A stretch of 64,000 nucleotides of DNA, taken from positions 672,001 through 736,000 of the forward strand of contig CAVSIV010000006.1 of NCBI GenBank assembly GCA_963728205.1, read 5' to 3'. This document shows, one piece after another, positions 55,963-59,564 of this stretch; the stretch's first letter is position 1; the number at the start of each line of letters is the position of its first letter. A program made the position numbers and the translations under genes. Below the pieces are notes generated by a model. The model was not told the DNA's origin, made no database searches, and saw only the letters and a program-made list of their open reading frames with translations. The stretch comes from an uncultured Chloroflexia bacterium (GTDB lineage: Bacteria; Chloroflexota; Dehalococcoidia; UBA2979).

Positions 55963-56091
55963 CGGATCGCCTGGGAGTCGGGGAGACACCGCGGTCTGGA
56001 AGGGACCCGCGCAGTATAGCGCATCGAACACCAGTTCGGGTCAGGTGCTTCAGCGATTACGGGGTTTCCGGCCGCACGGCTTCCGTCCTCG

Positions 56092-56183
56092 AAGCGGCGG
56101 GAGACATGCCGCCGACAGGACGCGGACGCAGTCCGCGGCTGGCGCCGCGCTTCTGTCGGCGGCATGTCTGCCGCCGCTTTGAC
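56092..56183. repeat. REPIN-like element
   Basis: Inverted REP pair, same spacer as the 15754 copy. Confidence 0.9.
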
Positions 56184-57114: not shown

Positions 57115-57594
57115 CTACCTCAGGAACGCATCACCCAGGGGCGAACGCGGCACGTCATCGCCGGCGTTCACCATGTGGTGCGCGAGCGGGCCCAGGCCGG
57201 ACAGCACCTCCGCGATCTCCTGCTCGCCGACACCCGCCTCGCGCATCGCCGTCGTGAACAGGCGCAGCCAGCGGCCGGCGGCGCGCTCGTCGATCACGAA
57301 CGGGAAGTGGCGCATCCGCAGCCGCGGGTGGCCGTAGCGCTCGCTGTAGCGCGGCTCGCCGCCGAGCCACTGCTCGACGAACAGCTTCTGCTTCTCGCGC
57401 CCGGGGCCCAGGTCGTCGGGGAAGAGCGGGCGCAGCACCTCGTCGCGCTCCACGTGGTCGTAGAAGGCGTCGACGATGCGCTCGACGGCGGCGCGCCCGC
57501 CGACGCGCTCGAACAGCGGCGCGGCGCCCTCGGGCGCGCGGGCCGGCCGCCGCGACGGCGGTGGCGACGCGGGGAGGTCGCGGGGGGAGGTCAT
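57115..57594 (-). CDS. Group II truncated hemoglobin (trHbO)
   Basis: GG...VDAFY, LGGEPRYS..YGHPRLRMRH.PF. Confidence 0.92.
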   Translation of the reverse strand: MTSPRDLPASPPPSRRPARAPEGAAPLFERVGGRAAVERIVDAFYDHVERDEVLRPLFPDDLGPGREKQKLFVEQWLGGEPRYSERYGHPRLRMRHFPFVIDERAAGRWLRLFTTAMREAGVGEQEIAEVLSGLGPLAHHMVNAGDDVPRSPLGDAFLR

Positions 57595-57815: not shown

Positions 57816-57958
57816 GCACTCAGTGTAGGCGACGCGGGCTGGAGGCGTGCTTCGCGCGGCGCTCGGTCGAGGCGCCGGTCGCCGCCGGTCGCCGGGCGGT
57901 GCGCCGGCCACTGGTAGGATCGTCGTCCACGACGACGCGACGCCCGGCAAGGAACACG

Positions 57959-58171
57959 ATGCACGCCCACCTCCAGGCCGTGATGCCCTACGAGCTCCAT
58001 GGCACCCGCTACTACCAGCTCGTCTTCGTCCCCGAGGGGCAGCAGCGCCCGCAGCAGGCGCGCCTCTCGCACGACATGATCTACGCGGACCCGCGGCCGG
58101 GCGATCAGATCGAGGTGCACGCCATCCTGGGCGTCGTCGACCGCGTCGAGCGCGCCGCCGCCGCCGACTGA
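57959..58171 (+). CDS. Small beta-rich (OB-fold-like) hypothetical protein
   Basis: AAGGA RBS, ATG 57959, GC3-biased codons, PRPGDQIEV. Confidence 0.65.
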   Translation: MHAHLQAVMPYELHGTRYYQLVFVPEGQQRPQQARLSHDMIYADPRPGDQIEVHAILGVVDRVERAAAAD

Positions 58172-58200
58172 GCGGACCGAGCACCAGGCGAGGAGCACAC

Positions 58201-59214
58201 GTGACGAACCAGCCGGCCGACGGCGAGACGCCGCCGGGCCTCCGCTTTCCCGACAGCGACGACTTCCCGACGGGCCCCGCCGTCGGCGAACCGCTCCCGG
58301 ACTTCACGCTCCCAGACCAGTCCGGCGCGCCGGTCACGTTCTCCGCGGCGCGCGGCGACCGGCGGGCGGCCGTCGTCTTTCTGCGCTCGTCGCGCTGGTG
58401 ACCGTACTGCCGCACGCAGCTGGTTCAGCTGCAGCAGCACCTGGCGGACTTCGAGGCCGAGGGCGTCGCCGTCTTCGCGATCCTGCCGGACGCGCCCGAG
58501 GCGCTGGCCGCGTTCGCGACCGAGTACGGCATCACCTACCCGTTGCTGAGCGACGCCGACTCCGCGGCGATCCGCCGCTTCGGCATCCTCAACACGCTGA
58601 TCCGGCCGGACGAGGCAATCTACGGCATTCCCTATCCCGGCACGTACATCACCGACGCGCAGGGCGTCGTCGTGGAGAAGCGCTTCTACCGCCGCTACCA
58701 GGTGCGCGACGACGTCGAGTCGCTGCTGCACGCGCGCTTCGGCGCCGCGCTGCACGCCGAGCAGGACGCGGCGGTCGCGGCCGAGTCGCCGGGCGTGCGG
58801 GTGAGCGCGGTCCTCGGCGGCAGCGAGTTCGTGTTCCAGCGGCGCGCGACGCTGTTCGTGCGGCTCGACCTCGACGCCGGTCTGCACGTCTACGGCCCGC
58901 CGGTGCCGGAGGGCTACATCGGCACCGAGGTCACCGTCGCCGGCCCGGACGGCCTGATCGTCGAGCCGGCGGCCTACCCGCCGACGCACCCCGTGCGCTT
59001 CGAGGCGCTGAACGAGACGCTGCACGTGATCGAGAGCCCCGTCGAGATCGCCGTCCCGCTCACGGCGAACATCCGCGAGGGCGACGCGGTCCCGCTGGAG
59101 ATCACGGTCCAGTACCAGGCGTGCGACGACCGCCAGTGCTTCCTTCCGCAGCGCCAGGTGCTGCAGCTCGACGTCCCGCTGGCGCCGCTGAACCGCCCGC
59201 CGCGCCGGGGCTAG
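58201..59214 (+). CDS. Selenoprotein: AhpC/TSA-like redoxin (UPYC) fused to a DsbD N-terminal-like domain, 337 aa
   Basis: AGGAG RBS; in-frame TGA 58399-58401 in RW-U-PYC; frame stays open to TAG 59214; C-terminal YQACDDRQCF.P. Confidence 0.88.
58407..58437 (+). promoter_or_regulatory. Candidate bacterial SECIS element
   Basis: GCAGCTG-GTT-CAGCTGC (58416-58432), G-led loop 21 nt after the UGA, lower CTGC/GCAG stem. Confidence 0.72.
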
Positions 59215-59220
59215 CCGTCG

Positions 59221-59468
59221 CGACGCCATCCGCCGCCGCGAGCGCCATCCGCCGCCGCGACGCCATCCGCCGCCGCGACGCCATCCGCCGGCGGGACGCC
59301 ATCCGCCGCCGCGACGCCATCCGCCGGCGGGACGCCATCCGCCGCCGCGAGCGCCATCCGCCGCCGCGACGCCATCCGCCGCCGCGACGCCATCCGCCGC
59401 ACGCCATCCGCCGCAGCGACGCCATCCGCCGGCGCGACGCCATCCGCCGGCGGGACGCCATCCGCCGC
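59221..59468. repeat. About 14 tandem copies of an ~18-bp unit GCCATCCGCCGCCGCGAC
   Basis: GCCATCCG counted 14 times; no unique spacers. Confidence 0.92.
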
Positions 59469-59564
59469 CACAGCGGCGGCAGATATGCCGCCGACAGGGC
59501 GCGGACGCAGTCCGCGGCTGACACCGCCCATCCGTCGGCGGCATGTCTGCCGCCGCTGTGGCGG
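59466..59564. repeat. REPIN-like element
   Basis: gccacagcggcggcagatatgccgccgac ... gtcggcggcatgtctgccgccgctgtggcgg. Confidence 0.9.

Follow-up and report, generated by a model that had tools for sequence, protein, structure and literature searches.

Peroxiredoxin-like (Prx-like) selenoproteins, in which a UxxC motif lies within a PF00578 domain, were predicted by Kryukov, Zhang and Gladyshev in about 2004-2005 (PMC1088965), are listed in the accessible portions of two further papers (PMC2398784, as 'Prx-like 1', and PMC13188914) and have been counted in eight genomes (PMC1794560). The fusions listed in the accessible portion of PMC2398784 involve domains other than DsbD_N. We analyzed a 64,000-nucleotide (nt) stretch of DNA from an uncultured Chloroflexia bacterium (assembly GCA_963728205.1, contig CAVSIV010000006.1, positions 672,001 to 736,000 of the forward strand), referred to below as the window, in which a gene at positions 58201 to 59214 encodes a redoxin fused to a DsbD-alpha-like domain and is very probably a functional selenoprotein gene. 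Taken as a whole, the data were best explained, with high confidence, by a two-domain selenoprotein in which UGA 58399-58401 would be read as selenocysteine (Sec). Prx-like UxxC enzymes as such are already known from prediction, and only the DsbD_N fusion may be new. The features of the gene are as follows.

58190 to 58195, + strand: Shine-Dalgarno-like GAGGAG, 5 nt 5' of the GTG start (read from the sequence)
58201 to 59214, + strand: predicted selenoprotein coding sequence of 337 codons plus a TAG stop, with TGA as Sec (translation; full-length alignment to 39 homologues)
58282 to 58677, + strand: Prx-like (AhpC/TSA-fold) redoxin domain, residues 28 to 159 (Pfam PF00578; AhpE match)
58399 to 58401, + strand: UGA codon for the predicted Sec U67, first position of UxxC (TGA/Cys conservation across loci)
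58408 to 58410, + strand: C70 (TGC), resolving Cys of UxxC (invariant in 40 of 40 sequences; aligned to the peroxidatic Cys of AhpE)
58416 to 58432, + strand: SECIS-type (selenocysteine insertion sequence) hairpin GCAGCTG/GTT/CAGCTGC (fold, alignment, pair counts and frozen synonymous sites)
58543 to 59214, + strand: truncated 223-residue product of the gene caller, from a TTG start within the real gene (open reading frame [ORF] list; database protein P0002)
58837 to 59169, + strand: DsbD-alpha-like (DsbD_N) Ig-fold domain, residues 213 to 323 (Pfam PF11412; PDB profile; Foldseek)
59122 to 59139, + strand: CX4C pair, C308 (TGC 59122-59124) and C313 (TGC 59137-59139), in Y-Q-A-C-D-D-R-Q-C-F-L-P (invariant in 40 of 40 sequences)

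Under translation table 11, a single frame was broken into ORFs at 57847 to 58401 and 58543 to 59214. When the TGA was taken as a residue, one open frame extended from GTG 58201 to TAG 59212-59214, with the TGA situated within W66-U67-P68-Y69-C70 and followed by 270 further codons. An earlier sequence-only reading of this DNA had described the split ORFs, the position of the TGA, the W-x-PYC motif and the 270 codons beyond it, and each of these points was correct by direct reading and translation. That reading had also expected standard pipelines to call the gene a pseudogene; the products recorded by gene callers for this family are instead N-terminally truncated proteins of 223 to 263 residues. 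The 223-residue P0002 was 100% identical to the query and covered 66% of it, and the members named by NCBI were truncated 263-residue 'redoxin domain-containing' proteins. A protein database search detected 611 relatives at an E value of ≤0.001 among 7,998 candidates scored, with 120 being listed. By our own count, query coverage was at least 90% in 22 of these 120 proteins and 66 to 79% in the other 98. In a sample that was aligned, the shorter proteins started directly past the motif, as expected of a gene caller that encounters an in-frame stop. The active site of the family is invisible from protein calls as the public records, described as 'redoxin domain-containing' or 'hypothetical' proteins, start just past the catalytic residue. 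A Sec-flagged family model would mend many database records together.

A scan of species-representative genomes yielded 211 relatives, and the locus counts given below cover the best 80 of these 211. Codon 67 was TGA in 76 loci and a Cys codon (TGC or TGT) in the remaining 4 (L028, L031, L032 and L098). The motif was W-TGA-P-Y/F-C in 71 loci and W-TGA-P-P-C in 5. According to the record titles, the 80 loci carried at least six phylum- or class-level labels, the taxa being Chloroflexota/Dehalococcoidia, Acidobacteriota (Vicinamibacterales and Thermoanaerobaculia), Hydrogenedentota, Deltaproteobacteria, Acidimicrobiales, Gammaproteobacteria and 'Candidatus Multivorans'. Cys was present at both motif positions in all 22 full-length homologues among the 120 database proteins listed, so that Cys homologues at residue 67, which the sequence-only reading had put forward as a check, were present in both data sets. 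In an alignment of 40 sequences, the protein sequence was kept on either side of the TGA. The five loci with W-U-P-P-C (L092, L096, L097, L099 and L101) formed a subgroup that included Deltaproteobacteria and Acidimicrobiales, was without a signal peptide and had a C-terminal extension of 30 to 60 residues past the DsbD-like domain.

The TGA was followed by the hairpin GCAGCTG-GTT-CAGCTGC, which had been reported with its loop 21 nt downstream and was confirmed at 58416 to 58432. This hairpin is 17 nt long and begins 14 nt past the UGA, with a loop located 20 to 21 nt from the UGA; bSECISearch requires 16 to 37 nt between the UGA and the loop. The conserved core consisted of a 6-base-pair stem, GCAGCU/AGCUGC, and a 5-nt loop that always contained GU. 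A seventh pair in the window copy reduces the loop to GUU, and that pair was formed in just 9 of 58 sequences. The stem columns (18 to 23 and 29 to 34, counted from the T of TGA) were present at a fixed offset in all 58 distinct TGA-bearing sequences. Of the six stem pairs, four were invariant; a fifth was G-C in 55 sequences but A-U in 2 others and unformed in 1, and the sixth was C-G in 57 and U-A in 1. The stem had therefore undergone compensatory change in 3 sequences (two G-C to A-U and one C-G to U-A) and a break in 1. The 3 pairs changed on both sides compared with a shuffled mean of 1.1, with 2 of 500 shuffles reaching 3, and 88% of cells were paired in the proposed structure versus 4 to 47% in slid controls. 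A SECIS is described in the accessible portion of PMC1088965 as a stem-loop directly 3' of the UGA with a small G-containing apical loop, and the 6-base-pair stem and 5-nt loop with GU conform to this description.

Synonymous sites were then analyzed in 73 distinct sequences of 77. Within the stem, the Thr codon was ACG in 72 of 72 sequences, the third base of the second Leu codon was G in 73 of 73, Gln was encoded by CAG in 70 of 73 and Glu was encoded by GAG in 63 of 64. Third-position entropy was 1.1 to 1.85 bits at four-fold sites just outside the stem and 0.8 to 0.9 bits in the two loop codons, which were variable. These frozen synonymous sites were a stronger argument for the hairpin than covariation.

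The Cys forms differed in the state of the hairpin, which was missing from L028, degraded in L031 and L032 and intact in L098, which has TGT. These states agree with the evidence from the synonymous sites. The selA gene scored above the cut-off in all six TGA-form genomes tested (L023, L024, L034, L089, L092 and L100) and was not found in the three Cys-form genomes without an intact hairpin (L028, L031 and L032), which are metagenome assembled, such that absence is no proof. The Vicinamibacterales homologue L098, in which TGT at L098:538-540 encodes W-C-S-Y-C and the hairpin is kept, was from a genome with selA; at this locus, Sec appears to have been replaced by Cys recently, in a genome still using Sec.

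The genome containing the window (4.1 Mb in 6 contigs) was searched for the Sec machinery, another of the checks suggested by the sequence-only reading, and all four components scored above their cut-offs. The scores were 408 bits for selA (cut-off, 268), 310 bits for selB (cut-off, 242), 364 bits for selD (cut-off, 125) and 73.8 bits for tRNA-Sec, for which ARAGORN gave the anticodon TCA. The selD gene (L012, G000:C4:155115-156053, minus strand) had one in-frame TGA, which is its own Sec codon in S-C-A-G-U-A-G-K, and a Sec-peroxiredoxin with T-G-G-U was located at G000:C6:984401-984703 on the minus strand (L108). With the redoxin-DsbD_N gene, the number of Sec genes in this genome is at least three. 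The TGA in 76 of 80 loci, the conserved hairpin and the Sec machinery supported the earlier proposal that a UxxC selenoprotein with a SECIS lies hidden here.

Several results weighed against this proposal. Covariation was thin, with an almost invariant stem, and the shuffle control for percentage paired was uninformative as 499 of 500 shuffles equalled the observed value. The folding energy was no better than that of shuffled sequence (z = 0.08) in this GC-rich DNA; it was dropped as evidence, and the support for the hairpin is conservation, not energy, because the stability equals that of shuffled sequence. An Rfam scan of 58300 to 58560 at E values up to 10 gave two chance microRNA matches (E of about 9) and nothing suggestive of a bacterial SECIS model. 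The assembled selA changed frame once, at about G000:C2:333,05x (L001 place 2457), and in a search of sequencing runs by the selA locus, no run contained more than 0.11 of the selA-locus words and the source reads were not found. This frame change raised the prospect that the gene descends from selenoprotein genes but resides in a strain that has lost Sec synthesis through a truly frameshifted selA, in which case translation would end at the UGA and yield only fragments. Two further genes in the same assembly, one of them the essential rpoB, argue that such breaks are assembly noise: rpoB (G000:C6:1072371-1075962) was spread across at least three frames, with two TGA codons in one piece, and a gyrA-like paralogue (G000:C6:1776272-1778529) was split over four, so the selA frame change is probably an assembly artefact. 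A 235-nt contig from run X1, 96 to 97% alike, carried an additional base at the very site of the selA break; as a single contig with a depth of 2.5, it provides weak support for an intact selA, and the other read assemblies from four runs were mostly fragments of relatives. In-frame TGA codons were also kept at catalytic positions in selD, the peroxiredoxin and the redoxin-DsbD_N gene, and we consider loss of Sec synthesis very unlikely. Even less probable, to the point of being negligible, is that the TGA is a nonsense mutation or sequencing error in a pseudogene or between two separate genes. The frame broken under table 11, an assembly with indel errors and the 223-residue product on record would fit this explanation; it is contradicted by a TGA that recurs at exactly this position across distant phyla (76 of 80 loci), Cys in that column in the remaining loci, conservation of both flanks as protein and the conserved hairpin 3' of the TGA. 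Neither a nonsense mutation nor a base-calling error can account for a TGA that recurs with conserved flanks across phyla, and genome-wide recoding of TGA was contradicted by the ordinary TGA stop of the upstream gene nearby (58169-58171). The selenoprotein reading was retained. The assembly contained many indel errors overall, which may account for its completeness estimate of 89%.

The N-terminal domain matched AhpC-TSA (PF00578) at residues 28 to 159 with an E value of 1e-31 and Redoxin with an E value of 4e-17. The closest solved structure was AhpE of Mycobacterium tuberculosis (1xvw and 4x1u; 33% identity over about 139 residues; TMt, 0.75 to 0.79), and the domain was nearest to AhpE and BCP-type peroxiredoxins, followed by ResA, DsbE and TlpA-type redoxins. 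In the HMMER alignment to AhpE, U67 was opposite the Thr and C70 was opposite the Cys of T-x-x-C. The catalytic Arg of AhpE, R116, the residue altered in the R116A entry 4xih relative to 1xvw, aligned with P146, a residue that was invariant in 40 of 40 sequences, and the Pro position of PxxxTxxC was taken by Arg62/Ser63. The protein thus lacks both the catalytic Arg and the peroxiredoxin motif, given as PxxxTxxC/U in the accessible portion of PMC13188914. As the Pro/Thr/Arg triad of peroxidases is missing, the site is a CxxC-type centre with a cis-Pro. What was found corresponds to a Prx-like UxxC protein, a PF00578 domain with W-U-P-Y-C in place of TxxU. Thiol-disulfide oxidoreductases are recognized by UxxC or CxxC together with a cis-Pro. 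None of the NCBIfam models matched above its cut-off; among the selenoprotein models, scores were below the cut-off for the SelL-related redox protein NF040769 (42.8 versus 120 bits) and for WAxxUGC NF041054 (21.2 versus 300 bits).

The C-terminal half had been described as DsbD-alpha-like, and this description was borne out by Pfam, a PDB profile search and the fold. DsbD_N (PF11412) was matched at residues 213 to 323 with 28.8 bits against a cut-off of 25 (E, 1.4e-6), and this match was precomputed for nearly all homologues among the 120 proteins listed. In the 40-sequence alignment, C308, C313, H229, Q306 and P316 were invariant. A PDB search with the single sequence of the C-terminal domain gave no match at E values up to 10. 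When a 33-sequence profile was utilized, the matches below an E value of 0.1 were exclusively chains of nDsbD, the N-terminal domain of DsbD (3pfu, 5nhi, 1jpe, 1l6p, 1jzd and 1vrs), with a best E value of about 1e-3, and the profile paired Y-Q-A-C-D-D-R-x-C-x-x-P with the Y-Q-G-C...C-Y-P-P Cys pair of Escherichia coli nDsbD, which we take to be Cys103 and Cys109. The model of this domain alone had a pLDDT of 92.7. Foldseek ranks 1 to 8 were occupied by nDsbD (Neisseria meningitidis and E. coli) or by the N-terminal domain of ScsB (E, 4e-5 to 1e-4; TM, 0.47 to 0.64); adaptin-ear Ig domains scored nearly as well, and the fold alone was not specific. Foldseek with the full-length model gave matches to the redoxin domain only.

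The full-length AF2 model had a pLDDT of 92 and a pTM of 0.87. Interaction of the two domains was examined by docking the two halves of a natural Cys orthologue, P0013 (55% identical), with our own alignment of 22 Cys forms. The halves scored 0.81 compared with 0.01 for the best of three controls, with at least 95% contact agreement between runs and a partner pLDDT of at least 89. Of 80 solved complexes, 58 pass the docking mark, as do 2 of 110 mismatched pairs; these rates hold only roughly here as our own alignment was used. The pass appears mostly to show likeness since the halves came from one chain and solved complexes of nDsbD with thioredoxin-fold (Trx-fold) proteins exist. The two domains were tightly packed in the docking model. 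The modelled interface, in P0013 numbering, comprised residues 63-64, 66-67, 69-74 (flanking both motif Cys residues), 106-107 and 161-175 on the redoxin side and residues 204-217, 285-289 and the C-terminal tail 330-335 on the side of the C-terminal domain. A further point on the unfavourable side is that C309 and C314 of P0013 were unlisted in this interface, an unnamed residue being uncertain rather than excluded. Judging from the secondary structure, the interface may be formed by one end of the strands and the Cys pair may sit at the other. Direct contact of both redox centres within one chain was not supported by the docking model, which does not favour the self-contained Sec-to-dithiol relay of the sequence-only reading: the docked interface covers the CxxC face and does not contain the CX4C pair. 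Exchange between subunits or after a domain movement would be the more likely route because the centres of one chain do not meet in the docked conformation.

Recoding signals, two identifiable domains and conservation of all four redox residues were observed in this gene. In the mechanism that we propose, SelB and tRNA-Sec would be recruited by the 17-nt hairpin and would decode UGA 58399-58401 as Sec. The redoxin domain would then work like ResA, TlpA or CcmG rather than like a peroxidase, with U67 acting as the attacking nucleophile and C70 closing a selenenylsulfide. The job of an nDsbD-type domain is electron exchange with Trx-fold proteins, and the C308/C313 pair would be the likely electron-relay partner of the UxxC centre. 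Electrons would flow from a reductant to CX4C, from there to the U/C pair and finally to the substrate, and exchange between the two centres would need a second subunit or domain movement. The relay between CX4C and UxxC as such has a roughly even chance of being correct. The protein would be a reductase fed through the CX4C domain, and it would reproduce in a single chain the pairing that nDsbD and CcmG form as separate proteins.

Cellular location was assessed by direct reading of the N termini and by scoring the open frame that precedes the conserved F-P-T-G-P for hydrophobic stretches of 12 residues, a heuristic of our own that was counted by eye. A signal-peptide-like segment or lipobox, located 56 to 79 residues before the domain, was detected in 56 of the 80 loci (Acidobacteriota, Gammaproteobacteria and 'Multivorans'). 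No such segment was present in 20 loci (15 Chloroflexota type and 5 W-U-P-P-C), and the N terminus was cut by a contig end or unclear in 4 (L061, L063, L073 and L094). The same heuristic detected no signal-peptide-like segment in the window copy. The family looks mainly exported, which fits a DsbD-alpha-type module, while the window's subgroup looks cytoplasmic. The earlier claim of a cytoplasmic protein without a signal peptide stands, at best, for the Chloroflexota-type subgroup, including the window copy, and fails for the family with its 56 exported-type N termini. The Chloroflexota form would act in the cytoplasm and most of its relatives outside.

Two alternatives to a cytoplasmic Chloroflexota reductase were considered. 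The N-terminal domain could be a peroxidase that attacks hydroperoxides through Sec or C70, in the manner of Sec-peroxiredoxins or GPx, with the DsbD-like domain serving only for recycling. The best Pfam and PDB matches are indeed peroxiredoxins (AhpC-TSA at 1e-31 and AhpE/BCP), C70 is opposite the peroxidatic Cys of AhpE and selenols react fast with peroxides. A peroxidase is nevertheless doubtful, given the absence of PxxxTxxC/U, in which Pro gives way to Arg/Ser and Thr to U, the replacement of the catalytic Arg by the invariant P146, a UxxC with cis-Pro that marks thiol-disulfide oxidoreductases and the presence of ResA, DsbE and TlpA among the matches. Alternatively, the Chloroflexota form could be extracytoplasmic too, through non-classical export or a mis-assigned start, in which case there would be no cytoplasmic DsbD-alpha-like domain. 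DsbD-alpha is normally extracytoplasmic (periplasmic), and the exported-type N termini of most homologues point in the same direction. This explanation is unlikely, more so than a peroxidase, because the frame 5' of GTG 58201 overlaps another gene, is Arg rich and lacks a hydrophobic stretch close to the domain, 58201 is preceded by a good ribosome-binding site and, by the heuristic, the coding sequence likewise begins at the conserved domain in all 15 other loci of the Chloroflexota type and in the 5 with W-U-P-P-C. A thiol-disulfide reductase that is cytoplasmic in Chloroflexota remained the preferred reading.

Gene order around the locus was kept in Chloroflexota and consisted of a ubiE-type methyltransferase, a truncated globin on the opposite strand, a 70-codon ORF, the selenoprotein gene and purU. 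The 70-codon ORF (57959-58171, + strand) had no Pfam match and no Cys and ended 30 nt 5' of the selenoprotein start. It was directly upstream in 8 of 80 loci, all Chloroflexota and all TGA forms (L023-L027, L029, L030 and L089), with 63 to 85% identity, and may be an operon partner of the selenoprotein gene. The truncated globin (57115-57558, - strand; PF01152, E of 1e-28) was found in this arrangement in 10 Chloroflexota loci, and its adjacency may reflect a shared role in oxidative or nitrosative stress. A tandem array at 59214 to 59469, which starts with the last base of the stop codon, comprised 14.3 copies of an 18-nt unit (consensus, GCCGCCGCGACGCCATCC). Two copies of an element of ~100 nt (59465-59564 and 56068-56182) were 84% alike, had inverted arms of 30 to 31 nt located 34 to 38 nt apart and flanked the ubiE-globin-selenoprotein block; this element looks like an intergenic repeat of the REP/MITE type. 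For the exported form, the neighbours of one Vicinamibacterales locus (L034) were an AsnC-type regulator, an FdhE-like protein, a DNA methylase and a PIN protein, and there was no DsbD/CcdA-type membrane partner among the neighbours of this single locus.

A family of DsbD_N-fused Sec redoxins with Sec as the rule was not found described in the accessible portions of the literature, and the supplementary tables of the surveys may list it. Neither the division of such a family by presence or absence of a signal peptide nor a Sec/Cys switch tracking selA was found described in the same portions. It is possible, though we advance it only tentatively, that the AhpC/TSA-DsbD_N fusion is a distinct and undescribed selenoprotein family, which would occur in several phyla, have Sec in about 95% of species-level genomes, switch between Sec and Cys with gain or loss of selA and include a DsbD-alpha module moved to the cytoplasm in Chloroflexota by signal-peptide loss, probably working between subunits. 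If true, a DsbD-alpha-type redox domain would be known from the cytoplasm for the first time. The occurrence of a Sec-redoxin/DsbD-alpha module both with and without an export signal, and of Sec forms in selA-positive and Cys forms in selA-negative genomes, would provide a natural experiment on the preference for Sec at the attacking position and on partner choice by DsbD-alpha. The known picture of bacterial Sec decoding is unchanged by this gene, whose enzyme kind has been predicted for twenty years.

Comparison with described systems placed the gene closest to the Prx-like UxxC selenoproteins, with which it shares the AhpC/TSA fold, UxxC in place of TxxU and a bacterial SECIS directly 3' of the UGA. 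It is set apart from them, as they are described in the accessible portions of the surveys, by a fused DsbD_N domain with an invariant CX4C. Sec-peroxiredoxins (PxxxTxxU), one of which is encoded in this genome, have the same fold and belong to the same Pfam family; here, the Sec is predicted three residues earlier, at the Thr position, and the peroxidase Pro and Arg are missing. The 1-Cys peroxiredoxin AhpE has one domain, T-x-x-C and R116, whereas the protein described here has U-x-x-C, P146 and a second domain.

The C-terminal domain resembled nDsbD and the N-terminal domain of ScsB in its Ig-like beta-sandwich (Foldseek top matches 6dps, 1l6p and 6c29; TM, 0.5 to 0.6), in the aligned Y-Q-x-C...C-x-P pair and in a G-x-H/Y-x-Y strand near the Cys pair. 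It differed from nDsbD in the length of the loop, which is CX4C here and one residue longer for E. coli nDsbD in the alignment, in its fusion to its Trx-fold partner and, for the window copy, in the lack of a signal peptide. Comparison with the membrane DsbD transporter detected neither a transmembrane domain nor a gamma domain; Pfam recognized two domains only in the 337 residues, and no hydrophobic segment or, by the heuristic, signal peptide was present. The pairing of a CxxC/cis-Pro redoxin with DsbD-alpha is also found between CcmG/ResA/TlpA-type redoxins and nDsbD, as in complex 1z5y, which was among the Foldseek matches. In the protein described here, this pairing occurs within one polypeptide, Sec would take the place of the attacking Cys and the redoxin sequence resembles AhpE/BCP more than CcmG. 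The CX4C pair is not among the residues listed for the modelled interdomain interface.

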